DNA from: a virus
Length of the DNA stretch: 40,593 nucleotides
Virus record (IMG/VR): IMGVR_UViG_3300045988_115300
Coordinates: 1 to 40,593 of that record
Strand: one strand, 5' to 3'
Numbering within the stretch: position 1 is the first letter of the stretch; each line of letters begins with the position of its first letter. Below are positions 10,192 through 35,609 of this stretch, piece by piece. Under the pieces are notes generated by a model. It ran no database searches. It saw nothing but the letters and a program-made list of their open reading frames with translations, and was not told the DNA's origin. The position numbers and the translations under genes were made by a program.

Positions 10192-11283
10192 ATGAAAACA
10201 TACTGCAAACACTCGCGTATCACCGAACCCGGGTTCGTGCGCGACTGCATCGAGAAATTCCTGAAAGGCAAGAAGTCACGGCGTGACGTGAATGATTTCC
10301 TCCGCCGCCACCCGGACTTGGATTTGCTTTCACGGCAGATCGCCGACGAGATACGACGCGGCGAATACTCGTTCGCTCCTATCCGCTATTTCCGGCGCGT
10401 GGAGCCGATTTCAGGCAAGATACGCACCATCGGACGTGAGAGCATCCGCCATCAGATATACGATTATGTCGCCGGTCAGGCGTTGATGCCGATGCTCCGC
10501 GCGAAGGTAGGCAGATGGCAGACGGCGAGCATACCGAATCGCGGCATAGCCGATGCTCGTCGCGCGATCAAGAAATGGGTGCGCGAACCATCCAGCAGGG
10601 TGTTCGTGAAACTGGACGTGCGTAAATGCTATCCGTCGATAAGCCGTGAGGTGTTGAAACGGCTGCTCGCACGCGACGTGGGGGATAGGCGGCTGCTTGA
10701 TTTGACCTTCCATCTCATCGACCAGTATGCGGGCGATGATGGTTTGAACATCGGCTCGTATTTGAGCCAATGGCTCGCCAATTATTATCTGAGCTGCGCA
10801 TACCACTATTGTGAACGGCATCTCTCAAAGGAGCGCGTGAACCGCAGGACGGGCGAGATAACCACGAGACGGCTCGTGACGCACGTGCTCTTCTACATGG
10901 ATGACATTCTCTTGGTGGGAAGGAGCAAGCGTGACCTGACCATAGCCGTCAGACGCATCCGCGCCTACCTGCGAGACATGCTCAGATTGGAGATTCATCC
11001 GACGTGGAATGTGAAGCACGTCGGAGTGGAGCCTATCGACATGGTGGGCTTCACCTTCTACCCAGACCATACCGGCGTGCGTGCCGGTATATTCCTCCGC
11101 GCCCAACGCGCGTTCCGCCGCTACAAGCGGCATCCATCAAGTCTTCGGCTCGCATACCGTTGCGCCAGCTACTACGGCTGGCTCAAAAACAGCGATTCAA
11201 TCCAATACCGGCGCCGTCACGACGTCGATCAGATCGTCCGCCACGCAAGGAACACCATCGCGGCGCACAACAGGAAGGAATGA
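10192..11283 (+). CDS. DGR reverse transcriptase
   Basis: 363 aa; the YMDD box is in LFYMDDILLVG; NIGSYLSQWLANYYL is the [I/L/V]GxxxSQ motif typical of DGR RTs. Confidence 0.9.
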   Translation: MKTYCKHSRITEPGFVRDCIEKFLKGKKSRRDVNDFLRRHPDLDLLSRQIADEIRRGEYSFAPIRYFRRVEPISGKIRTIGRESIRHQIYDYVAGQALMPMLRAKVGRWQTASIPNRGIADARRAIKKWVREPSSRVFVKLDVRKCYPSISREVLKRLLARDVGDRRLLDLTFHLIDQYAGDDGLNIGSYLSQWLANYYLSCAYHYCERHLSKERVNRRTGEITTRRLVTHVLFYMDDILLVGRSKRDLTIAVRRIRAYLRDMLRLEIHPTWNVKHVGVEPIDMVGFTFYPDHTGVRAGIFLRAQRAFRRYKRHPSSLRLAYRCASYYGWLKNSDSIQYRRRHDVDQIVRHARNTIAAHNRKE

Positions 11284-15495: not shown

Positions 15496-15603
15496 TCATC
15501 TGCCGTGCCTAGGCGGCTTTCTGAGCGAGATGACCAGCGCCGCCAGTGCGATGATGTTGCTTGTCACCGAGCTGATGGCGTTTACGATGTCCGTCCATTT
15601 CAT
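15496..15603 (-). CDS. 35-aa hydrophobic peptide (leader or small membrane protein)
   Basis: MKWTDIVNAISSVTSNIIALAALVISLRKPPRHGR. A perfect AAGGAGG lies 5 nt upstream of the ATG, and a sigma-70-like promoter lies just upstream. Confidence 0.5.
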   Translation of the reverse strand: MKWTDIVNAISSVTSNIIALAALVISLRKPPRHGR

Positions 15604-15622
15604 GTTCACCTCCTTTCCTTTG

Positions 15623-15651
15623 TTGACATAAACTATTGTATCAAATATATA
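15623..15651 (+). promoter_or_regulatory. Rightward sigma-70-like promoter (TTGACA-17-TATATA), overlapping the leftward one
   Basis: TTGACA 15623-15628, a 17-nt spacer, then TATATA 15646-15651. It points toward the attP-like region and int. Confidence 0.35.
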
Positions 15652-15663
15652 TAAGTAATGCAA
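15635..15663 (-). promoter_or_regulatory. Leftward sigma-70-like promoter (TTGCAT-17-TACAAT)
   Basis: On the minus strand: TTGCAT (15663-15658), a 17-nt spacer, then TACAAT (15640-15635). It is positioned just upstream of the 35-aa ORF RBS. Confidence 0.45.
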
Positions 15664-15830
15664 GCCGAAACATGAAAAAACACGAGAAAAAATCAGCGGA
15701 TTGATAGGCTCGACACCATGTAAGGTTGGAAATGGACAGAGATGGAGTCGATTACGGACCTGCCTTCACCGCTCTAGCTGTTTCACGACGTCAAAAAAAT
15801 AGCCGATTTTCATATATTTGAGACAGTGTA

Positions 15831-15855
15831 GAGGTGGTAGCCTGAGTGGTAAATC
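15831..15855 (+). repeat. Candidate integrase arm-type site pair (GTGGTA-N6-GAGTGGTAAA)
   Basis: gaggtggtagcctgagtggtaaatc; 18/25 identical to 16062-16086, same orientation, 231 bp apart, in the A+T-rich region upstream of int. Confidence 0.45.
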
Positions 15856-16061
15856 ATCACGCAGGCATATAAAAAGCCAATAAACAGAACGGTTTTCAGA
15901 GAATCAGCGATATTTCTGCTGGAAAACTGGAACAAATAGCGCTCGCCGACGCGCGCTCCACAAAAACGTTGGAATCAAGCCGTTTCCAGCGTACATATCA
16001 TCGATACGCCATTTTGAAACGCGGGAATTTTTGACCAAAAATAGACTCATACGCCACAATT

Positions 16062-16113: not shown

Positions 16114-17376
16114 ATGGTCAGGAAGTTCGGCAAGATCGTCGTCAAGCCAAGCAAGGCCAATCCGAAATGGATAGAGGCCTCCTATCTTACGCCAGTGTCC
16201 GCCTTTTCGGAATGGCCGGACCTGCCGAACAGGCAGACCGCCACCTTCCCCTGCACCCAGGACGGCAGGGACGAGGCCGCGGCATGGCTGACCAGAGCGA
16301 GACGGCGCATCGAGGCTGACGTGTGGGAGCCGGAGCGCATCGCCAAGCGCAAGGCCAAGGACACCGCCCTGACATTCGGCGAGTATGCCGCGAAATGGCT
16401 GAAGACGCGGGAGGGCGAAGGACTGCACGTCAACACCATCTACGGGATCCGATGCACGGTCAAACGGCTCATCGATGCATTCGGCGGCATGCCGATCGGC
16501 AAGATCACCTCGGCCGACATCGAGCGCTATGCGGCCACACTGCCGAAGGACCACCCATACGTCGGTCGAGAGCTGCTGTCCAAGCTCCGCCAGATCCTCG
16601 ACGCCGCCGCGACCCCAGACCAGGACGGCTTCGCCGTCATCGGCAAATCACCATTCGTCATGCCGGTGCGCAAGCCCGCGCCCAGGGAGGAGACACCCGC
16701 CGCCACACCACAGCAGCTCCGGCGGATCCACGACGCCATGCCACGCAAATTCCGGCTCGCCATCACCCTCGCCATCTCCTGCGGAGGCCTGCGCATCGGC
16801 GAGGTCTGCGCCCTCCAACGCGGCGACATCGACCTCGACAACCGTCTCATCCACATCCGCCGCACCAGACTCACCCGCGCCCGCGTCATCGCCGGGCCGC
16901 CGAAGACCGCCAGAAGCAAACGCACCGAACCAATCCCCGAAGCCGTCATCCCCGAAATCCGCGCGCACCTCGCCGAATATGTGGCCGACCAGCCGGACGC
17001 ATGGATATTCCCCAGCCCGCTGGACCATGACAGGCCGATCAGCACGGACGCCATGCGCGACGCCTACGTCAAGGCGAGACGCGCAGCCGGACGCGAAGAC
17101 CTCCGATTCCACGACCTCCGCTCCACGGCACTCACCATGCTCGCCCAACAGGGCGCCACCGTCCGCGAACTCATGGCCGCAGCCGGACACAGCACCGCCA
17201 TCATGGCCATGCACTATCAACGACTCAGCGAAGACCGACAGCGCGCGCTCGCCGACAAGGTGGCCGCCAACATCACCACGCCGCAGCGGGACGCCACAGT
17301 CTCGGCTGAGAGCGACAAGGATAAGGAGATCGCCCGGCTCCGCGCGCGTCTGGCAGAGCTAGAGGCGGGGGAGTAG
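16114..17376 (+). CDS. int: Tyrosine integrase
   Basis: 420 aa; GGLRIGEVCAL (Arg box), HDLRSTALTMLAQQG (HxxR) and GHSTAIMAMHYQRL (catalytic Tyr region). Confidence 0.92.
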   Translation: MVRKFGKIVVKPSKANPKWIEASYLTPVSAFSEWPDLPNRQTATFPCTQDGRDEAAAWLTRARRRIEADVWEPERIAKRKAKDTALTFGEYAAKWLKTREGEGLHVNTIYGIRCTVKRLIDAFGGMPIGKITSADIERYAATLPKDHPYVGRELLSKLRQILDAAATPDQDGFAVIGKSPFVMPVRKPAPREETPAATPQQLRRIHDAMPRKFRLAITLAISCGGLRIGEVCALQRGDIDLDNRLIHIRRTRLTRARVIAGPPKTARSKRTEPIPEAVIPEIRAHLAEYVADQPDAWIFPSPLDHDRPISTDAMRDAYVKARRAAGREDLRFHDLRSTALTMLAQQGATVRELMAAAGHSTAIMAMHYQRLSEDRQRALADKVAANITTPQRDATVSAESDKDKEIARLRARLAELEAGE

Positions 17377-21867: not shown

Positions 21868-22860
21868 ATGTGGTTCATTGTCGACGACCAGATGGCCGAC
21901 GACAGGCGCATCCGCCGCCTGCCGCTCGCCACCGTGGGATTGTGGGTCAAGCTGTGCGTCATCCATTCCAAAGGCGTCTCGATGCAGGCCAAGGACCCGG
22001 CCGCATACCCCGGCCACTTCGACAAGCTCGACCTCAAGGACGCCGGAGGCACCATGAAACAGCTCCAGCAGCTCATCGACTCCGGCCTCATGGAGGAGCA
22101 CGACGGAGGCTGGCGTCCCGTCTACGCCGAAGGCATATGCAAGGAGCCCAGGACGCTCACCGAGGAACAGCGCGAGGCCCGCCGCAAAGCCGGAAGCAAG
22201 GGAGGCCGCCGCAAGGCCGCCAACCAAAAAGCCAAGCAACCGTCTAGCAACTTGCTAGCAAACAGCCAAGCGAACGGAGAGCAAAACAGTAGCGAGACAG
22301 GTAGCGAAACGTCTAGCAACTTGCTAGAGGACAGCCAAGCAAAAACATGGCATAAAACCGATACCTATACCGATATACCCTCTCCGACCCCTCCCGCCGG
22401 CAAACCGAAGCAAACCGCCACGCCGGACGCCTACGCGGCCATCGCCGAAGCCTACCCCGGCTCCGCCGGCGCCAAGGGCCGCAAGACCGACCTCGAGGCG
22501 CGAGGCCTGGTCTCGGCCATCGCCGAGAACCCGGCCCAGCTCGCCCGGCTCCAATCGGCCGTCCGCCGATACCGTCGCGCCGTCAACGACGGCCAGGTGC
22601 CGCGCCGGCAGATCCCGCGGCTCAACACATGGCTCCGCGACCAGTGGGAGACATGGGCGCCCGAACCCATCACACCCACGCGCCAGCACAAGCACACCTG
22701 GAACTGCGAACACGTCCACCAGCTCATGGATTCACATGAGGACGAATACGACCACACCGGCAGCCTCCGGGAAGGCAAACCGTCCAAGTGGTATCTCGCA
22801 TGCCAGGCATGTGCCGACGAACTCAACAACCAACAAGAAACCAGCAAGGAGAAGCAATGA
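21868..22860 (+). CDS. Putative replication initiator / replisome organizer
   Basis: 330 aa; lies between ssb and the ParB-like gene; contains internal DNA iterons (22241-22340). Function is inferred from synteny only. Confidence 0.55.
   Translation: MWFIVDDQMADDRRIRRLPLATVGLWVKLCVIHSKGVSMQAKDPAAYPGHFDKLDLKDAGGTMKQLQQLIDSGLMEEHDGGWRPVYAEGICKEPRTLTEEQREARRKAGSKGGRRKAANQKAKQPSSNLLANSQANGEQNSSETGSETSSNLLEDSQAKTWHKTDTYTDIPSPTPPAGKPKQTATPDAYAAIAEAYPGSAGAKGRKTDLEARGLVSAIAENPAQLARLQSAVRRYRRAVNDGQVPRRQIPRLNTWLRDQWETWAPEPITPTRQHKHTWNCEHVHQLMDSHEDEYDHTGSLREGKPSKWYLACQACADELNNQQETSKEKQ
22241..22271. repeat. 31-bp iteron, copy 1 (candidate origin element)
   Basis: cgtctagcaacttgctagcaaacagccaagc; contains the inverted repeat CTAGCAA-C-TTGCTAG; 28/31 identical to copy 2. 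Confidence 0.45.
22310..22340. repeat. 31-bp iteron, copy 2
   Basis: cgtctagcaacttgctagaggacagccaagc; 69 bp from copy 1, with two GTAGCGA(G/A)AC motifs between the copies. Confidence 0.45.
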
Positions 22861-24260
22861 GCAACTACCAAACCAACCAGATCAAGCTCATCAACACGAG
22901 CCTCATCGACCCACACCCGGACAATCCACGCAAGCAGATCGGCGACGTGACCGACCTCGCGGCCAGCATCAGAGCCAACGGGCTCCTCTCGCCCCTCAGC
23001 GTCGTGCCCCACGGCCAGCGTTATCGTGTCATCGCCGGCCATCGCAGGCTCGCCGCATGCAAACAGGCCGGCACCGGAGCCGTCCCATGCTTCGTGCTTG
23101 ACCTCGACCCATTGCAGCAGCTCGAGGCCATGGTCACCGAGAACTGCCAGCGCGAACAGCTCACCGTGTTGGAGGAGGCCGACGCCATCCAGGGCATGCT
23201 CGACCTCGGAGCCACCACCGCCAGCGTCGCCCACCGGCTCGGCCGAAGCGCCGACTACGTGCGTGACCGCGCCAAGGCCGCCAGCATCAAGACCGAGGTC
23301 AGAGCATCCCGCGACGATTTCGGCCAGATCTCCATCGGCCAGCTCGTGGCCATAGCGCGATACGACGGCCGTCCGGATCTGCAGAAGGAGCTCGCGCAGG
23401 CGGCGGGCACCTCGAACTTCGACTACATCCTCCGCAACATCGAACGCGACGACCGCGACCGGCAATGGATCGAATCGGTCGCCGCGCTCCTCGTGGAGCC
23501 CGACAGCGGCATCAACCTCATCCCCGACCCCGAAAAGCCCTACAGCGACCCGGAATGGCGCTACCTCGGCTGCATGTTCCCATCCACCGGCACCCCCGAA
23601 GAAGCCATCGAGAAGATCCGCGAACAGAACCCGGCCGCCGTATCCATCCACACGGTCTCGCAGCAGGTCTACCTCTGGACCCGCCGTGACAAGACCGCCG
23701 ACGCCGAAAAGGAAGCCCGACGGGCCGCCGAACAGGCCGAACGCGACGCCCGCAGGCACGCGCTCGAGGAATACGCCGCCGCATCCGCGGACAAGCGCAT
23801 GGCATGGCTCCACGCCAACCTCCACGGCATCAAACGCGACAAGCTCGTCGAAACCACGGCCCGGCTCGGACTCCTGCAGATCATCGACCCATTCCCAGGC
23901 GGCTTCACCGACGCCCTCACCAACTGGAACAACCACACCGGAAGCCGCGAGGAATACGAGAAGATCACCGGCATCACAGCCGAAGACGCCCCGACAGCCG
24001 CCCGCATCAGCCTGCAGACCGACGACTGGCCATTGGAAGCAGCATCCATCCTCGCCGCACGTTTCGAATGGTTCATCGATCCGACCGACTGGACCACCGT
24101 CAACGACACCAGCAGACGCATCCCCGGCTACTACCAGATCCTCCAAGACCTCGGCTACACCACCGCCGACGACGAAACCAGCCACCTCGACCAGCTCATC
24201 CACGCCATCAGCGAAGCCGACTCCGACGAAAACGAAGAAGACGAGGAGAACAACCAATGA
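22857..24260 (+). CDS. ParB-like nuclease domain protein
   Basis: 467 aa from the ATG overlapping the upstream stop. IDPHPDNPRK...LSPLSVVPHGQRYRVIAGHRRLAACKQAG is a ParB/Srx N-terminal domain signature. Confidence 0.8.
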   Translation: MSNYQTNQIKLINTSLIDPHPDNPRKQIGDVTDLAASIRANGLLSPLSVVPHGQRYRVIAGHRRLAACKQAGTGAVPCFVLDLDPLQQLEAMVTENCQREQLTVLEEADAIQGMLDLGATTASVAHRLGRSADYVRDRAKAASIKTEVRASRDDFGQISIGQLVAIARYDGRPDLQKELAQAAGTSNFDYILRNIERDDRDRQWIESVAALLVEPDSGINLIPDPEKPYSDPEWRYLGCMFPSTGTPEEAIEKIREQNPAAVSIHTVSQQVYLWTRRDKTADAEKEARRAAEQAERDARRHALEEYAAASADKRMAWLHANLHGIKRDKLVETTARLGLLQIIDPFPGGFTDALTNWNNHTGSREEYEKITGITAEDAPTAARISLQTDDWPLEAASILAARFEWFIDPTDWTTVNDTSRRIPGYYQILQDLGYTTADDETSHLDQLIHAISEADSDENEEDEENNQ

Positions 24261-28927: not shown

Positions 28928-29689
28928 ATGAACAAATGCCAACAATGCGGCGAACCAGCACAAACCACCCTCTGCAAAACCTGCGCCAAACACATGCGCC
29001 GACAGGCCAGCAGCCTCGCCAAAACCATCCCCGAACTCCGCGCGCTCGCCGAACGCAAGGCGCACATCGGCGAGCGCGGTGGTGGCGTTCGTGGTGGTGA
29101 GCCTGGGTTGCCGGTGAGTGTGCATTGGCTGGAGGTGTATGAGGAGGCGGCCCGCTTGATGCTTCGGCTGGCGGGTTGCGTGGATCTCAAGTGGATGCTG
29201 TTGCCGGTCGAGGGGTGGCGGCCGGCGTATCGGGCGGTGTGCAGGTCGTGGTCGCGTGTGGTGTGTTCGCCGTCGGCCGGCGAGCTGGCCGATCGGCTGG
29301 ACAGGATGCTCAGGCGCGTCGACCGGCTTTCCACGCCTTCGGACGGCAGGGTGACTGTCGTGCAATGCCCGGACTGTTCGACGTCGCTGGCCGTGCCGCA
29401 GGGCATGCGTGATGGCTGGTGTCCTGAGTGTGGCGAGCGTTTGGACTTGGACATGCTGGTGGCCGGCAGACTGGGGGAGGCTGGACAGGCGGTTATGACG
29501 TGTTCGCCCGCCGAGGCGGCCGACTGGCTGACCGACCGTGCCGGACTGCGCACCACGCGCAAGCAGGTGTCCAACTGGCTGACTCGTGGCAGGCTGTCGA
29601 AGGCACGGCGGATCGGCCGTGGCATGTGGGAATTCAATCAAGCCGAGCTGGTCGACACGCGACTTGCGCAAGAGGGTGAGTCCATGTAA
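28928..29689 (+). CDS. Zinc-ribbon plus C-terminal HTH DNA-binding protein (possible late-gene regulator)
   Basis: 253 aa; the N-terminus has CQQCG...CKTC; the middle has CPDC...CPECG; the C-terminus has a DNA-binding-like RKQVSNWLTRGRLSKARRIGRGMWEF. It is the last gene before a terminator and the packaging genes. Confidence 0.6.
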   Translation: MNKCQQCGEPAQTTLCKTCAKHMRRQASSLAKTIPELRALAERKAHIGERGGGVRGGEPGLPVSVHWLEVYEEAARLMLRLAGCVDLKWMLLPVEGWRPAYRAVCRSWSRVVCSPSAGELADRLDRMLRRVDRLSTPSDGRVTVVQCPDCSTSLAVPQGMRDGWCPECGERLDLDMLVAGRLGEAGQAVMTCSPAEAADWLTDRAGLRTTRKQVSNWLTRGRLSKARRIGRGMWEFNQAELVDTRLAQEGESM

Positions 29690-29701: not shown

Positions 29702-29735
29702 GCACCATGCCCGAAGGGTCTGGTGCTTTTCTTTT
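29702..29735 (+). terminator. Rho-independent terminator ending the early/middle operon
   Basis: GCACCA/TGGTGC outer stem and CCC-GAA-GGG inner stem, followed by TTTTCTTTT. A TATAAT hexamer follows at 29745-29750. Confidence 0.65.
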
Positions 29736-29922
29736 ACCAATGCTTATAATCGTTGCTGTCCGGCGTGGAGCCACTAGCAACCCTTGGAGCCGTCGCACCG
29801 AAGGACGTCGACCATGGCGGCGACACCCGTCGCGTCGGTGGCCCATGAATCGGGGGTGGCCAGCTGGGGGACCTTCGCGGGAGACGTACCCCAGACATGC
29901 CGGGCCTCCGATGGGGGATTTG

Positions 29923-30315
29923 ATGTACAAGGTATGCTCCACCTCCGGCTGCCCGCACCTGGTATCCTCCGGCTCCCTGTGTGACGAGTGCAGGAAAGCC
30001 AAGGACAAGCGCCGCTCGCGCGGCCGCAATCCATACACCTCGAAGGCGCATCGTCTCGCACGAGCCCGTGTGCTGGCGAGGGACCCGCGATGCGTCTGCC
30101 CTGGTGACGGACCCGACGGATGCGGCAGGCACCATGGCCTGTGCGGCGCCCCCAGCACCATCGCCGACCATTGGCCGCTCGAACGCGTCGAACTCGTCGA
30201 AGCCGGACTGGACCCCAACGATCCGGCGCGCATGCGCGGCCTGTGCAAGCGTTGCCACGACAGCAAGACGGCAAGGACGAAACCTTCAGGCTTCAACGGT
30301 CGAAGCCTTCGCTGA
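29923..30315 (+). CDS. HNH endonuclease (packaging-associated)
   Basis: 130 aa; CPHLVSSGSLCDEC...TIADHWPLERV...LCKRCHDSKT; directly upstream of the cos-like region and the terminase genes. Confidence 0.8.
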   Translation: MYKVCSTSGCPHLVSSGSLCDECRKAKDKRRSRGRNPYTSKAHRLARARVLARDPRCVCPGDGPDGCGRHHGLCGAPSTIADHWPLERVELVEAGLDPNDPARMRGLCKRCHDSKTARTKPSGFNGRSLR

Positions 30316-30396: not shown

Positions 30397-30525
30397 GGAA
30401 AACGAAAAGCGATCAAGTCTTTTTCAATTCGGTTCGCGGCCCGCCGCGAAGACGAACGCGCGGTATTGGAAAACGTTGGAAAATCAACGAAAACAAACCG
30501 GCGAAACACCCACGGGGGTACCCCC
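30397..30525. other. cos-like / terminase recognition region
   Basis: Phased GGAAAA/CGAAAA motifs at about 30397, 30404, 30468, 30478, 30489 and 30502, plus the 12-bp palindrome GGGGGTACCCCC at 30514-30525. They lie in a 348-bp gap with no credible ORF between HNH and terS. Confidence 0.45.
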
Positions 30526-30663
30526 TAACGGATTGGCGGCCGGAACCGCCGGAGAGCTGTCTCCGAGGTGCGGAGGGTTCAAAAGTTTCAGAGGGGGGCG
30601 GGCGAAAGGCCCGGCCGCCGACAGCGAAGGAACGGCGCGAGGCCGTCCGACGATGGAGGAAGC

Positions 30664-31215
30664 ATGCCAAGAGGAGGAAAACGCGTCAGATCCGGTCCGA
30701 TGCCCGATCCGTCGAGCGGAGCGAGCGAACGCAGGGGATACACCCTGCGCAGTCTGCCGAACACCGAATACAAAGGCAGGCCGCCGAAATTCCCGCTACC
30801 ACCGTATGTGCTCCGCGATTTCGACAAGGAGTCGCAGGAATGGGTCGAGGACAGGGCCGGTTCGGAATCCTGGAACAATCGGGAGGCCGAACTGTGGAAG
30901 CAATTGTGGCGTCTGCCGCAGGCGCGCGCATGGAAACAGCCGCAGCTGAAGTACCTGCACTACCAGATCGCCTCGTATGTCCGCGAATGCGTGGTGTGCG
31001 AGAGCCCGTCGGCCAAGGCGGCCGACGTGGCCGTGAAGATCAGGCTCGAGGACCGCATCGGCCTGTCCGAGGCTGGATTACAGGCGCTCGGCTGGAAGAT
31101 CTCCGAGGACAACGTCGACATGGCCGCCCACGAGGTGCCCGCCACGGACGCGGAGGCCGCGGAGAGCGGCATGGACACCAAGATCGTCCAGTTCCCACGC
31201 CGGTTGAGGGCGTGA
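30664..31215 (+). CDS. terS: Terminase small subunit (P27-like)
   Basis: 183 aa from MPRGGKRVRSGPMPDP...; GGAGGAAGCATG; directly upstream of terL. Confidence 0.72.
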   Translation: MPRGGKRVRSGPMPDPSSGASERRGYTLRSLPNTEYKGRPPKFPLPPYVLRDFDKESQEWVEDRAGSESWNNREAELWKQLWRLPQARAWKQPQLKYLHYQIASYVRECVVCESPSAKAADVAVKIRLEDRIGLSEAGLQALGWKISEDNVDMAAHEVPATDAEAAESGMDTKIVQFPRRLRA

Positions 31216-31216
31216 C

Positions 31217-32335
31217 ATGGCCGACGATTGGATCATCGACTTCCCGACCCTCGCCGACCTGCAGGATGCGTGGGTTCGGCGGCATGTGCGCCAGCCCGAC
31301 GGCATCCTCCGCGGCAAGCCCTTCTGCTGGTCAGATTGGCAGTTCTGGTACGCCGCGCACCGCTGGAGGGTGCGCGAGGACGCGGAATTCATCCCGCCCG
31401 AAGAGGTCACGGTCGATAATCCGCTGGTCCTCAACCAGGCTTTCCAATATCGTCTGACCGGCTGCATCGGCCCGCAGAAGACAGGCAAGGGGCCAACCGA
31501 GGCGTCATGCGCCATACTCGAGGCATGCGGCCCAGTCGTGTTCGCCGGATGGGCGAAGCCCGGCGACGTGTACCGCTGCTCCGACAACGGCTGCCCCTGC
31601 GGATGGGTCTACCACTACAATCCGGGCGAGCCGAAGGGCATGCGACACCCGTCGCCGCTCATCCAGCTGACCGCGAACTCCGAGGACCAGGTGCGCAACG
31701 CCTACCGTCCACTCGTCGCGATGATCCGGCTCGGGCCGTTGAAGCAGCTGCTCAAGGTGCGCGAGGGTTTCATTCGCATCCTGCGCCCCGGAATCAACTT
31801 GGACGATGACGATCTCGACCTCGACCGCATCGACGTGGTGACCGCGTCGGCCACCAGCCGTCTGGGCAACCCGATCTCGGACGCGGAACAGGACGAGGCC
31901 GGTTTGTACACCAAGTCGAACGGCATGCTCGACGTGGCCGACACCCAACGGCGCGGCGCCGCCGGCATGGGCGGCAGGACGCACTTCTGGACCAACGCAT
32001 ACGACCCCGGCGAGAACAGTTACGCGCAACAGCAGTTCGAGACATCGGCATCGGATGTGTGGATCTTCTACCGCAACCCGGATTTAAACCCGGACCTGCG
32101 GCACAAGGACGGCACGCCATACAGCTTCAACAACCGGCGCGAACGCCGCAGGATCCTCGAATGGGTCTACGCCGGCAGCCCGTGGGTGCCTTTGGACTCC
32201 GTCGAGGCGGAGGCCGAGGCGCTCATGGAGAAGGACCCGGCACAGGCCGAGCGCTTTTTCGGCAACCGAATGGTGCAGGGAGGCGGCGCATGGCTCGAGG
32301 ACGGACTATGGGAGAGCTGCTATGCGGGACAATAG
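31217..32335 (+). CDS. terL: Terminase large subunit, N-terminal ATPase half (separate ORF)
   Basis: 372 aa; P-loop-like CIGPQKTGKGPT; acidic DVVTASATS.../DEAG region. It ends ...GGGAWLEDGLWESCYAGQ* where single-chain TerL proteins continue into the nuclease domain. Confidence 0.82.
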   Translation: MADDWIIDFPTLADLQDAWVRRHVRQPDGILRGKPFCWSDWQFWYAAHRWRVREDAEFIPPEEVTVDNPLVLNQAFQYRLTGCIGPQKTGKGPTEASCAILEACGPVVFAGWAKPGDVYRCSDNGCPCGWVYHYNPGEPKGMRHPSPLIQLTANSEDQVRNAYRPLVAMIRLGPLKQLLKVREGFIRILRPGINLDDDDLDLDRIDVVTASATSRLGNPISDAEQDEAGLYTKSNGMLDVADTQRRGAAGMGGRTHFWTNAYDPGENSYAQQQFETSASDVWIFYRNPDLNPDLRHKDGTPYSFNNRRERRRILEWVYAGSPWVPLDSVEAEAEALMEKDPAQAERFFGNRMVQGGGAWLEDGLWESCYAGQ

Positions 32336-33065
32336 ACCACTCGACAAATCAAGGATGCGGACGATGAGGCAATACAATCTTCCGCTGCTGCAAAAGGTGC
32401 GGACGGTTGGCAGATACGACATGCCAATGCTTGCAAAACAGGACGTCACCACCCCTGACACGTTGATGGGCTTCAATTACGCGACCGGCAAAAAGACAGT
32501 CAAGCATTGCGGAATCCATTTCTTCATCGATGACTACCAGTTCCAGAGAGTCTGGAACCAGCCGGACAGATACATCGCACCGCTCAAACGCTTCCAGTGT
32601 GTGCTGACGCCTGATTTCAGCACATACATGGACATGCCGGAAGCGATGAAGATCTATAACGTCTTCCGAAGCCGTCTGATCGGAGCATACTGGCAGTCCT
32701 GCGGGCTGAAAGTCATCCCAACGCTTCAATGGGCTGGCCCAGAATCGTTCTCTTACTGCTTTTCAGGCATTCCAAACAACTCCACCGTCGCGGTAAGCAC
32801 TGTCGGAGCGAATGACAATCCGACGGCAGAGCTCTATTGGCGGCTCGGCATGCGGTACGCGATCGACAGGCTTGAACCGGAAAAGATTCTCCTCTACGGA
32901 GATGCCATTCCGTTTTTCGACTTCGGTGGCGCCGAAGTCGTCGCATACGAAAACAGCAATGTGGAAAGGATGAAAAAATGGGCGGAAGAGGATCAAGCTC
33001 GGGCGCAGGCCGTGGCGGACATGGCGGCGGAGGGGGAGGCTCTGCCACCGACCTCTCATCCGTAA
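32322..33065 (+). CDS. DUF4417-like protein encoded inside the split terL
   Basis: 247 aa; GIHFFIDDYQFQRVWNQPDRY...VLTPDFSTYMDMPEAMKIYNVFRSRLIGAYWQ...VIPTLQW matches my recollection of the DUF4417 family (not searched). More A+T-rich than the flanks. The start could also be 32355 or 32364. Confidence 0.65.
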   Translation: MRDNRPLDKSRMRTMRQYNLPLLQKVRTVGRYDMPMLAKQDVTTPDTLMGFNYATGKKTVKHCGIHFFIDDYQFQRVWNQPDRYIAPLKRFQCVLTPDFSTYMDMPEAMKIYNVFRSRLIGAYWQSCGLKVIPTLQWAGPESFSYCFSGIPNNSTVAVSTVGANDNPTAELYWRLGMRYAIDRLEPEKILLYGDAIPFFDFGGAEVVAYENSNVERMKKWAEEDQARAQAVADMAAEGEALPPTSHP

Positions 33066-33433
33066 GCGACTCGGATCTCACCAAGATGATGCGCGACGCG
33101 GGAAACCGCATGGACGCCGCATCGGAAATCATGCAGAGAACTGCGCACGGAGCCACGCAATACAACCAGCGCATGCCGGAAAGCGTCTTTCCGGAGGCAA
33201 CCAAGGCGAACTACGACAAATACCAAGCGGCTTCCAAGGCATTCCACACCGCCAGAGCACAGCGCGACAGAATCTCCGACGAACAGATCCGACGCCAACC
33301 AAAATCAAGCGGCACAAGCCGCGCATTCGTCAATTCCTTCGGCGAAGCGACGACAAGGGAGATCACAAACCAGAACTACCAGCGCTCGCAGAAGAGTTTG
33401 TCGAAATCGGTCTTGAGGAACATGGGATACTAG
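32978..33433 (+). CDS. Gly-rich N-terminus hypothetical protein (second gene of the terL insertion)
   Basis: 151 aa; MGGRGSSSGAGRGGHGGGGGGS...FVNSFGEATTREITNQNYQRSQKSLSKSVLRNMGY. Overlaps the upstream ORF by 88 nt in the -1 frame. Its stop lies 1 nt before the terL C-half ATG. Confidence 0.55.
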   Translation: MGGRGSSSGAGRGGHGGGGGGSATDLSSVSDSDLTKMMRDAGNRMDAASEIMQRTAHGATQYNQRMPESVFPEATKANYDKYQAASKAFHTARAQRDRISDEQIRRQPKSSGTSRAFVNSFGEATTREITNQNYQRSQKSLSKSVLRNMGY

Positions 33434-33434
33434 C

Positions 33435-34088
33435 ATGTCCGAGCATGAGCTTTGGCTTGAGAACCCGCCGAAAGGCACAGAGGTGTGCCTCGGCTTCGAC
33501 GGCTCCGAGAACGACGACTGGACATGCATCAAGGCGGAAACCCGTGAGGGCTTCATCTTCACTCCGCGCTATGGCGCGGATCGTCGTCCGACGATCTGGA
33601 ATCCGAAGACGTGGGGCGGACGCATCCCGCGCAGCGAGGTCAATGCCGCCATGGACGAGCTCAACGACCGATACAAGGTTATCCGCGCCTACTGCGACCC
33701 CGGTTTCCGCGACGAGGTGTCGTGGGAATCGCAGATCGAGGCGTGGGACTCCCAATACGGGCCGAAGAAATTCATCCCTTGGTCGATGAGCGGTTCGAGC
33801 CGTATCACCGCCGTCTGGGAGGCATTGAAACGCTTCGAATCCGACCTCGAGCACCATGCCATCACTCAGGACGGGTGTCCGATCACCATCACGCACATGC
33901 GCAACGCAAGACGCTTTGCCAAATCCGGCGAACGCTACGGGTTGGGCAAGCCGAAGCAGACGCGGAAAATCGATGCGGCGGTGACGTGCGTGCTGGCGCA
34001 TGAGGCGGCATGCGACGCGCGTGCCGCCGGTTGGGGCAGGAAACGCAAGGCGTACCTGCTGACTGGTTCTACTACTAGGGGGTTCTAA
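33435..34088 (+). CDS. terL: Terminase large subunit, C-terminal RNase-H-like nuclease half (separate ORF)
   Basis: 217 aa; VCLGFDGSENDDWTCI, RAYCDPG and RKIDAAVTCVLAHEAA are the usual nuclease-domain acidic motifs. Confidence 0.82.
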   Translation: MSEHELWLENPPKGTEVCLGFDGSENDDWTCIKAETREGFIFTPRYGADRRPTIWNPKTWGGRIPRSEVNAAMDELNDRYKVIRAYCDPGFRDEVSWESQIEAWDSQYGPKKFIPWSMSGSSRITAVWEALKRFESDLEHHAITQDGCPITITHMRNARRFAKSGERYGLGKPKQTRKIDAAVTCVLAHEAACDARAAGWGRKRKAYLLTGSTTRGF

Positions 34089-35609
34089 ATGATTCGTACC
34101 GCCGATGACGTGAATCGCATGGCGAATCTTCTCGCCTTGAAGATCGAGAACCGTCGGCCGGACATCAGGAAGCATACGGATTATGTGCGCGGCAAGCGCG
34201 GAACCCTGAAATTCGCGTCCGACGAGTTCAAACGCTACATGGCGGACCGGTTCTCAGGTTTCGCCGACAACTGGTGCCTGCCGGTGGCGCAGGCGCCGGT
34301 CGAGCGCATCCATTTCAGAGGCTTTATCCCATACGACGACAGTGAGCTCGACTCGCATGTCATGCGCGTGTGGGAGCGGAATGACTGCGACCGCAAGCTG
34401 CAGGAGACGGCGCTGATGATGACCACGACCGGACGTGCTTTCGGCCTGGTCACGTCGATGCCGGACGGCAGGGCGCGCATCAGCTTCGAGCATCCGGACA
34501 GCGCGGCAGTGCACTATGATCCGCTCACTGGAGAGGTCGATGCCGGGCTGCTGGTCCGATACGACGAGGAGCACGAGTTCGGCACGCTGCTGCTGCCGGA
34601 CATGGTCTTCGACGTGGTGCGCGTGCGTGCAGGCGGGGACGACGAGCGTAACCGTCTGCCGCCCGGCGTTGAGGGTTGGCGGTTCGTTCCGGATTCGGCG
34701 CGCGCGAACCCGCTCGGACGCGTGCCATTGGTCGAATTCCGCAATCAGATGCTCCTGGATGACCTGCCGATCAGTGATGTGGAGCAGGTCGAGTCGATGC
34801 AGGACGCCGTCAACGTCTGCTGGGCATACACCTTGAATGCTTTGGATTTCGCGTCCATGCCTGCGAGGGTGATACTTGGCGGCGACTCCCTGTCCGAACC
34901 GGTTTTCGACAAGACTACCGGCGAGCAGGTCGGCGAACGTCCCGTGAACCTCGACAAGCAGGTCATGGAGCGCATCATGCAGATCACCGGCGACAACGTG
35001 TCGATCGGGGAATGGACAGCCAGCAACCTGCAGGCGTTCCTGCCGATCATCCAGAAGGCCGTCGAGCACATCGCGGCCGAGACACGCACGCCCGGCCACT
35101 ACCTGCTGACGAACGCCGAGGTGCCGGCCACCGGCTACGAGGTCGCCGAAGCCGGCCTCGTGTCGAAGACATTGGAGCGCATCAGCTTCATGCGTCAGCC
35201 GGTGCGCGAATTGTGCGAGATGGCCATGATGCTCGAGGATGACGAGGAATCAGCCCGCATCCTCGAGGATTCACAAGTCGTGTTCGCCACACCGCAATAC
35301 CGGTCCGAGGCCCTCATGGCCGACGCGATGCTCAAATACAAGCAGCTCGGCTACCCGCTGCAGTGGATAGCCGAGCAGATGGGCCAGAGTCCGGAGGACA
35401 TCAAACGCATCATGCGCATGGTGGACGACGAGAATCACGATCCGGAGATGGCTGAGATAGCACGAAGCCTGCAGGTCGGAGGTGCATCTGATGACGGTGA
35501 CTCTGGAGAGCCTGTCGGACAGCCGCAACACACTGGCCCGACTCTGCCTGCTGGCCGTGAAGGCGGCGGACAAAACATGGAAGGGCGTGGATCCGCGACG
35601 GGTGCGTGA
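34089..35609 (+). CDS. Portal protein
   Basis: 506 aa, immediately after terL, acidic C-terminus. Confidence 0.88.
   Translation: MIRTADDVNRMANLLALKIENRRPDIRKHTDYVRGKRGTLKFASDEFKRYMADRFSGFADNWCLPVAQAPVERIHFRGFIPYDDSELDSHVMRVWERNDCDRKLQETALMMTTTGRAFGLVTSMPDGRARISFEHPDSAAVHYDPLTGEVDAGLLVRYDEEHEFGTLLLPDMVFDVVRVRAGGDDERNRLPPGVEGWRFVPDSARANPLGRVPLVEFRNQMLLDDLPISDVEQVESMQDAVNVCWAYTLNALDFASMPARVILGGDSLSEPVFDKTTGEQVGERPVNLDKQVMERIMQITGDNVSIGEWTASNLQAFLPIIQKAVEHIAAETRTPGHYLLTNAEVPATGYEVAEAGLVSKTLERISFMRQPVRELCEMAMMLEDDEESARILEDSQVVFATPQYRSEALMADAMLKYKQLGYPLQWIAEQMGQSPEDIKRIMRMVDDENHDPEMAEIARSLQVGGASDDGDSGEPVGQPQHTGPTLPAGREGGGQNMEGRGSATGA

Follow-up and report, generated by a model that had tools for sequence, protein, structure and literature searches.

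How does the large terminase gene of a phage come to be carried as two genes that lie 1.1 kb apart? The question is raised by IMG/VR record IMGVR_UViG_3300045988_115300, from which a stretch of 40,593 nucleotides (nt) was analysed over its whole length (the window, to which all coordinates refer). At the locus in question the open reading frame (ORF) listing of the window contains four co-oriented frames, namely TerL-N, encoding the ATPase half of the large terminase subunit TerL, an ORF for a protein with the domain DUF4417, an ORF for a 151-amino-acid (aa) protein with a Gly-rich start (ORF151), and TerL-C, encoding the nuclease half. The coordinates and lengths that an initial annotation, made from the sequence alone, had given for all four are exactly those of the listing. 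That annotation took the two middle genes as a cassette that had split terL, by analogy with essential phage genes divided by free-standing homing genes. The present comparisons lead to a different answer: the locus very probably represents the polymorphic insertion of an accessory module into a terminase that was already made of two genes.

The two outer frames account for one TerL. TerL-N matches phrog_19179 (E = 2.3e-172) with residues 2-371 on profile positions 4-346 of 347, and TerL-C matches phrog_21277 (E = 1.9e-101) with residues 2-214 on positions 2-206 of 208; each half thus aligns at full length, and the PHROGs database keeps separate families for the ATPase and the nuclease halves. 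On the full-length TerL family phrog_9, TerL-N covers positions 76-469 and TerL-C positions 476-678, and because these stretches are contiguous the two halves are parts of one TerL. TerL-C also matches PF20441 (TerL_nuclease, Pfam) weakly, and searches of PDB sequences with the TerL halves gave nothing informative.

Among the loci that share 98-100% TerL-N identity with the window, each taken with ±5 kb of surrounding sequence, 36 of 75 carry the insert and 39 are empty. Filled and empty alleles are intermixed on the trees of the flanks, the smallest filled-empty distance being 0.000 over the 900-nt left flank. Empty sites in relatives, which the initial annotation had proposed to look for, therefore exist as a present/absent polymorphism among near-identical phages; the uninterrupted terL that was expected at such sites does not, since TerL is still split in 39 of the 39 empty loci. 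The filled arrangement itself recurs at 36 independent loci with 24 distinct sequences, which come from more than ten independent metagenome datasets and one metagenome-assembled genome (MAG) of Bifidobacterium, and an assembly or sequencing error that would hide a single ORF is thereby discounted. A megablast of the region against deposited phage genomes gave zero matches.

The comparison of filled and empty junctions locates the insertion precisely. An empty junction reads …TGG GAG AGC TGC T ATG CAG GAA CAT GA, the final TGA being the stop of the ATPase gene, and the ATG that follows …TGGGAGAGCTGCT starts TerL-C 14 nt 5' of that stop. The GGGAG Shine-Dalgarno (SD) sequence, which is encoded by conserved Trp-Glu codons, lies 7 nt ahead of the junction ATG. 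In the window, the same SD and ATG (32310-32324) instead open the DUF4417 frame, ATG CGG GAC AAT AG, in which a new TAG at 32333-32335 terminates TerL-N; the 14-nt overlap described before, from the ATG at 32322 to this stop, is confirmed. At the other end TerL-C starts in the sequence TAGCATG, directly after the ORF151 stop at 33431-33433, with the ATG at 33435 and hence the 1-nt gap that had also been noticed. The TerL-C start codon is ATG in 19 of the filled loci and GTG in 18. The module has in addition an SD of its own, AAGGA (32351-32355), and the ATGs at 32355 (M12) and 32364 (M15) are alternative DUF4417 starts, most gene callers choosing M15, which gives 233 aa. The first ~25 nt of the insert (32322-32346), which hold the new TerL-N stop, match both sources poorly. 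When the insert is removed in silico, the empty allele is recreated with the halves still in different frames, and therefore even perfect splicing could not give a continuous terL.

The split is also found far beyond the close relatives. In a tblastn search of deposited phages, the nearest cultured relatives, at 54-55% identity, are Gordonia phage Nyceirae and the Arthrobacter phages Gorpy, Isolde, and MidnightRain, the same 54-55% being found between TerL-N and the ATPase-domain genes of Nyceirae and Gorpy. In all four phages TerL is already two genes, labelled 'terminase large subunit, ATPase domain' and 'nuclease domain', which overlap by 20-32 nt without an intervening gene. The farther relatives Anekin and Brevibacterium AGM1 have a single TerL chain of 558-577 aa, and in an alignment that includes these intact proteins the break falls at one point in the window, Gorpy, and Nyceirae. 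By scans of IMG/VR and of a single genome for each species, the window was recognised as a Bifidobacterium (pro)phage and 118 related loci were obtained, with split and empty TerL also in other Bifidobacterium species and in Actinomyces prophages, and with intact TerL in Microbacterium, Rathayibacter, Streptomyces, Amycolatopsis, and Allonocardiopsis prophages. From these sequence comparisons it is highly likely that the TerL split predates the cassette and is common to an entire clade within the actinophage TerLs. The view that the cassette split terL does not survive this comparison, as the 39 empty-site relatives are all split at the same residue and so are cassette-free, more distant relatives from four further genera. 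The initial annotation had also allowed for a TerL lineage that always consists of two genes with conserved genes between them; the former part is borne out and the latter is not.

The trees suggest that the history of the halves is somewhat more complex. In a neighbour-joining tree of the nuclease domain (no bootstrap), every split TerL falls into one clade, and in the corresponding ATPase-domain tree (also neighbour-joining, no bootstrap) the intact Microbacterium and Rathayibacter TerLs nest within the split clade, their nuclease domains being basal. For four such prophages (L093, L094, L099, and L100), the ATPase domain is 63-65% and the nuclease domain 39-44% identical to the window. The pattern may reflect a single fission, after which the Microbacterium/Rathayibacter TerLs regained one chain, by re-fusion or a domain swap, where the gene had been divided. 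In the intact Microbacterium TerLs, an ATPase of the split clade seems to have been joined anew to a nuclease domain of foreign origin, so that on this sequence evidence the halves may act as exchangeable modules after the split. An exhaustive search with TerL-C gave 597 cluster representatives at E≤0.001, and the best 150 of these include several stand-alone nuclease halves of ~200-250 aa and many chains of ~540 aa. A number of family representatives (P0214, P0221, P0311, P0336, P0353, and others) have 690-975 aa with the nuclease match at the extreme C-terminus, and may be intein-containing or N-terminally extended.

Two observations on the junction itself should be mentioned here. The end of TerL-N (AWLEDG, TGGCTCGAGGAC, 32295-32320) and the start of TerL-C (LWLENP, TGGCTTGAGAAC, 33447-33470) match at 10 of 12 nt, possibly the trace of a short duplication made where the gene was anciently broken. 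Gorpy shows the resemblance less clearly, so it may be due to chance. In an Actinomyces MAG (L095, ~2150-2330), the TerL junction appears tandemly duplicated over ~70 nt (…RTQVWLPKWW… and …RQTVWLPNPPDGT…) and a stop codon lies within GFDGS, which could be a junction rearrangement or could reflect MAG assembly errors.

Table 1. Positions of the terminase locus features in the 40,593-nt window
Feature	Position	Strand	Evidence or remark
terS-like gene	30568..31215	+	directly 5' of TerL-N; phrog_226 E=9e-13
TerL-N (ATPase half), 372 aa, C-terminus ...WLEDGLWESCYAGQ*	31217..32335	+	phrog_19179 E=2e-172
Coupling signal: SD GGGAG 32310-32314, 7-nt spacer, ATG 32322-32324	32310..32324	+	filled vs empty junctions
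Insert relative to empty-site alleles, 1113 nt = 371 codons	32322..33434	+	filled/empty junction comparison
DUF4417 protein, 247 aa from the captured ATG	32322..33065	+	PF14386 E=1.5e-64
C-rich tract in DUF4417, CACCACCCC in the window	32447..32455	+	C6-C8 runs among relatives
ORF151, small MGGRG…VLRNMGY protein, 151 aa	32978..33433	+	88-nt overlap with DUF4417 3' end
TerL-C (RNase-H-like nuclease half), 217 aa	33435..34088	+	phrog_21277 E=2e-101
Portal gene, immediately 3' of TerL-C	34089..35609	+	PF05133 E=1.2e-11; phrog_104 E=8e-87

The features of the locus are collected in Table 1. The family that matches the gene directly upstream of TerL-N carries the label 'minor tail protein'; the positional counterparts of the gene in Nyceirae, Gorpy, and Anekin are annotated as the terminase small subunit. 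For the middle gene, which had been called DUF4417-like, the assignment to PF14386 is firm, with 217.3 bits against a gathering cut-off of 28.9. The A+T richness of the cassette that had been judged by eye is real and moderate: its G+C content (GC) is 55.1% compared with 61.6% for the window, within the lowest 3.5% of 1100-nt windows, and the GC at third codon positions is 0.67-0.70 in the cassette genes and 0.78-0.85 in the neighbouring genes.

An E-value scan of positions 30500-35000 against Rfam gave no intron family and only a lone chance match to an internal ribosome entry site, and no promoter or terminator was found on the + strand inside the operon. The insert has no terminal repeats, transposon-like ends, or target-site duplication, its two ends sharing merely a weak ATGnnnGA similarity. 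Since no intron family, + strand promoter, terminator, or terminal repeats were found, serial translational coupling on the late transcript would be the most economical reading of its expression. The tight coupling of the ORFs, the Rfam result, and the still-split excised allele all speak for the earlier proposal of a two-polypeptide terminase rather than an intron.

On this basis, the following course of events can be proposed. The window would belong to a temperate Bifidobacterium siphophage that inherited its large terminase as an ATPase gene and a nuclease gene, the halves being made, in the ancestral empty state, by translational coupling through the GGGAG SD and the internal ATG. The 1.1-kb module of DUF4417 and MGGRG genes would then have entered exactly at the TerL junction in about half of the closest relatives, probably once and after the local terL alleles had diversified. 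In doing so it would have captured the SD and ATG for DUF4417, leaving TerL-C to restart at an ATG or GTG 1 nt past the second stop, so that a late packaging transcript would be translated in the order TerL-N, DUF4417, MGGRG, TerL-C. The module would have been retained by purifying selection while its flanks recombined with empty-site alleles.

The relative age of the insert was examined through synonymous divergence (dS). The mean dS among filled loci is 0.078 for the cassette, as compared to 0.31 for TerL-N, 0.33 for TerL-C, 0.29 for the portal gene, and 0.23 for terS, and the cassette value lies below that of the flanks in 97% of 325 pairs. The deepest dS split is 0.16 in the cassette and 0.6-0.7 in the flanks, and the distance at four-fold sites is 0.067 versus 0.19-0.22. 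Synonymous diversity is thus ~3-4 times lower in the cassette, and the change is sharp at both edges: nucleotide diversity (pi) is 0.053 and 0.095 in the adjacent 100-nt flank windows and 0.011 and 0.032 just inside the insert. No co-conversion tract or gradient was seen around the insert, the diversity of the flanks being normal up to its edges. The simplest reading of these values is that of a single insertion, younger than the diversity of the local terL alleles, whose flanks would still exchange with empty alleles by recombination.

Purifying selection acts on both cassette genes: the ratio of nonsynonymous to synonymous divergence (dN/dS) is 0.24 in DUF4417 and 0.16 in the MGGRG gene. The same ratio is 0.03-0.04 for the TerL halves of filled loci (~0.03 for TerL-N and ~0.04 for TerL-C) and 0.03-0.06 for those of empty loci. 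The MGGRG ORF is intact in 37 of 37 filled loci and the DUF4417 ORF in 31 of 37; the latter is truncated in one locus and frameshifted at a C-run in five (L013, L019, L020, L031, and L088) by +/-1 nt changes, which could be a homopolymer sequencing error or a phase-variable tract.

Several points weigh against this account. The dS of the cassette scales with that of the flanks (Spearman rho = 0.60), and therefore a slower synonymous rate in the cassette could explain part of its apparent youth. The counts are not fully independent, since a single large dataset (3300045988) supplied many of the loci. Coupled translation and TerL halves that act in trans are inferred from the nucleotide sequence, and the viability of cassette-bearing phages from their abundance and from the selection on their genes. 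Finally, no protein of known function is significantly similar to DUF4417 in structure or sequence.

ORF151 falls in an unnamed family, of which 88 members were detected; MGGRG is invariant at the N-terminus, and FVNSFGEAT…VLRNMGY forms a motif at the C-terminus. Because MGGRG is invariant across the family, the Gly-rich start noted in the initial annotation is genuine, as is the overlap of 88 nt with DUF4417 that it implies. A tblastn search with ORF151 against 50,697 deposited phage records gave no match. In all seven contexts sampled, an MGGRG homologue lies just 3' of a DUF4417 gene, the two being adjacent in six (L126-L129, L131, and L132) and two genes apart in the seventh (L130). In six of the seven, the pair is located just upstream of terS, terL, and portal genes, across different TerL types. 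DUF4417 and the MGGRG protein are thus a previously undescribed conserved gene pair, and the search for the cassette at other loci, suggested earlier, was successful in that the pair is found upstream of terS in unrelated phages.

The nearest non-identical module, that of L132, has 79% and 76% aa identity for the two proteins. At the nt level it is 84% identical from the region of the module's own SD and ATG (~32346 of the window) to the second stop at 33433, and the flanks are unrelated. The order in L132 is module, HNH endonuclease, terS, and a single-chain TerL of 485 aa, and the module has a GC of 0.579 compared to 0.631 for the host genome. Its HNH endonuclease (phrog_338) thus stands between the module and terS, and at a similar position, just upstream of terS, the window has two Cys-rich ORFs (29707-30315 and 28928-29689, both +), one with zinc-ribbon matches and the other HNH-like by eye (…DHWP…N…CKRCH…), without a Pfam match.

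DUF4417 also occurs near terminase genes in other arrangements. Within the TerL lineage of the window, it lies upstream of terS in prophages of B. parmae and B. pluvialisilvae, and between terS and an intact 536-aa TerL in L133 and L134. In cluster A mycobacteriophages DUF4417 is gp1, beside cos, and in Streptococcus phages its gene directly precedes terS, and the domain is often fused to ParB_N; the genes 3' of DUF4417 in the Streptococcus phages A25 and IPP48 are unrelated to the MGGRG protein. The window has a stand-alone 490-aa ParB_N-domain protein in its early region (22788-24260, +), and in L132, too, a ParB_N protein (467 aa) is encoded apart from DUF4417, ~5.6 kb upstream. By analogy with the many other phages in which the two domains are fused, the stand-alone protein of the window could be a trans-acting partner of DUF4417.

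The AlphaFold2 model of the DUF4417 protein is confident, with a predicted local distance difference test score (pLDDT) of 92.4. A Foldseek search of the PDB with this model gave no significant neighbour, the best match having E=0.13 to TIM-barrel-like α/β proteins. In the viral library BFVD, the matches beyond DUF4417 homologues are weak ones to phage 'queuine tRNA-ribosyltransferase' (E 0.009-0.05, template modelling score, TM, 0.35-0.45). A relationship to tRNA-guanine transglycosylase (TGT) or DpdA was considered on account of these matches; hhalign against E. coli Tgt, with a probability of 0.45%, lends it no support, and no TGT is among the top 50 PDB matches. A profile search of the PDB matches just the ParB_N part of fused homologues; for the DUF4417 domain itself this search, NCBIfam, and PADLOC add nothing, and the published literature leaves it uncharacterised. 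The label 'nuclease', given to DUF4417 proteins in some database records, traces to the ParB_N domains fused in other members. The model of the MGGRG protein, also from AlphaFold2, combines an N-terminus predicted to be disordered with a long helical hairpin modelled at high confidence; the C-terminal motif is poorly defined, and the protein looks like an adaptor rather than an enzyme.

What the module does can only be addressed with reserve. A late nucleic-acid-directed enzyme with an adaptor, acting around packaging in DNA modification or anti-defence, is a possible role, which we put forward with clear doubt. We have also considered that DUF4417 and MGGRG are working partners of the terminase, in end processing, handling of pac or cos, or regulation of the motor, and judge this rather unlikely. 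Such a function would agree with the position of the pair, or of DUF4417 alone, at the edge of or inside packaging operons with at least three TerL types (for example cluster A mycobacteriophage gp1 by cos, the gene ahead of terS in the Streptococcus phages, the terS-terL gap of L133, and the TerL gap of the window), as well as with the adaptor-like helical hairpin and conserved termini predicted for the MGGRG protein. However, half of the near-identical phages lack the module, which is therefore not required for packaging; a late-operon site is equally typical of DNA-modification and anti-defence genes; and neither Pfam, PHROGs, Foldseek, nor NCBIfam gives any similarity to known packaging factors.

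These considerations can be joined, tentatively and with somewhat less than even confidence, into one picture of the terminase and the module. In this picture, the TerL motor and nuclease need no covalent linker and can be encoded 1.1 kb apart and translated separately, while DUF4417 and MGGRG form a portable packaging-linked pair, e.g., a DNA-modifying or anti-defence enzyme with its adaptor, which relocates between the gene boundaries of packaging operons and for which a translational-coupling junction can serve as a landing site.

Returning to the preferred reading, in which the module entered a two-gene terminase, three other explanations have to be weighed against it. It may be supposed that TerL is not really divided: in empty-site phages, a full-length chain would arise by programmed +1 frameshifting in the 14-nt overlap, and the filled genomes would be defective relics. 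The nuclease frame is indeed always +1 relative to the ATPase frame, the genes overlap in most members, and two loci (L091 and L096) have no obvious ATG at the junction. On the other hand, a good SD and ATG are conserved at the junction across genera, no slippery motif is apparent in the overlap by inspection, the TerL halves of filled loci are selected about as strongly as those of empty ones, and filled genomes occur in more than ten datasets with both cassette genes intact. We consider this explanation improbable.

Slightly less probable still, and hard to reconcile with the locus, is a homing-type selfish cassette, whose free-standing endonuclease (DUF4417) would have cut an intact terL, inserted, and so created genes in pieces. 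It would account for the present/absent polymorphism at one exact site in an essential gene, the foreign base composition of the cassette, its genealogy being shallower than that of the flanks, and the 'nuclease' label. The label, however, derives from fused ParB_N domains, and the confident DUF4417 model matches no nuclease fold; nor was any known homing family (LAGLIDADG, GIY-YIG, HNH, PD-(D/E)xK, His-Cys, EDxHD) found in the insert by Pfam, PHROGs, or NCBIfam. The break is already present, at the identical point, in all empty alleles and in distant relatives that have no cassette, the diversity of the flanks shows no co-conversion, terminal repeats are absent, and in unrelated phages the module usually resides upstream of terS. 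On these grounds, the analogy to homing genes drawn in the initial annotation is not supported. An intron, an intein, or an assembly error is extremely improbable, since, even though the 1113 nt of the insert are a multiple of three, no intron family was found by the Rfam scan, the insert holds stop codons and two selected genes, Pfam gives no intein or Hint match for either cassette protein, precise removal leaves an allele that is still split, and an arrangement found at 36 independent loci with 24 distinct sequences is not an artefact of one assembly.

It is useful to compare the locus with related systems. The two-gene TerLs of Nyceirae (gp5/gp6) and of Gorpy, Isolde, and MidnightRain (gp2/gp3) are of the same lineage, at 51-55% identity, and share with the window the break point, the +1 frame offset, and the SD and ATG within the last ATPase codons. 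The difference is that the genes overlap there and are 1.1 kb apart here, and, unlike in those phages, the original start signal of the nuclease gene serves another gene in the window and the nuclease half has a new start codon. Adjacency of the halves, which is otherwise a property of the split lineage, is thus lost in the window through the 1113-nt insert; every other split member examined, like the 39 close relatives, has overlapping genes.

Genes in pieces are known from other phages, the split gp43 DNA polymerase of T4-like phages being one example. Another was reportedly described by Friedrich and co-workers in 2007, namely nrdA of Aeromonas phage Aeh1, interrupted by the free-standing homing endonuclease gene mobE. 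The window resembles these cases in that an essential phage enzyme is made as two polypeptides, with foreign genes of lower GC between them and a polymorphic insert. It differs in that the insert has no recognisable homing endonuclease, the split is older than the insert, and the flanks are not co-converted; the window thus fails the tests that define genes in pieces, for which a nuclease family, an uninterrupted empty allele, and co-conversion are expected.

Siphovirus DUF4417 (PF14386) is often fused to a ParB-CTPase fold (bioRxiv 10.1101/2025.10.10.680097). The DUF4417 gene of the window has the domain and the association with the packaging end in common with these genes, and differs from them in being stand-alone without ParB_N, in having an MGGRG partner, and in its site inside terL instead of upstream of terS. 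The cassette also recalls the morons and accessory cassettes of temperate phages, in that its composition deviates, it is present or absent at a gene boundary, and the core function does not depend on it. In contrast to a moron, it has no promoter or terminator of its own and sits in a coupling junction, where it both relies on and interrupts the signals of the host operon.

No description of such an arrangement was found in the literature on split terminases, DUF4417, Nyceirae, or bifidoprophages. The two-gene TerL is known at the annotation level, from SEA-PHAGES records and PHROGs, and we found no paper that discusses it. New are the insertion of a module into the coupling junction, the polymorphism of this insertion in natural populations, and the definition of the gene pair.

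Models of viral packaging give the link between the ATPase and the nuclease of TerL a role, as in the work on T4 gp17. The 1.1 kb of other genes between two strongly constrained halves may be regarded as natural evidence, at the sequence level, for domains that work in trans, and the matched filled and empty genomes provide material for experiments on a two-chain terminase. DUF4417, which is widespread and includes gp1 of the cluster A mycobacteriophages, gains a partner and a testable context, and in many gut phages the pair goes together with the packaging operon. The locus further indicates that an accessory module can take over the coupling signal of an essential operon without disabling it.

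Two features of the window at a distance from the terminase locus complete the description. A 363-aa ORF at 10192-11283 (+), in the late region upstream of the endolysin gene, contains a reverse-transcriptase domain (RVT_1, E=2e-12) and may belong to a diversity-generating retroelement. The lowest GC of the window, 45.4%, is found at 15501-16000, just upstream of the tyrosine integrase gene at 16114-17376, and this spot is probably attP or a moron region.

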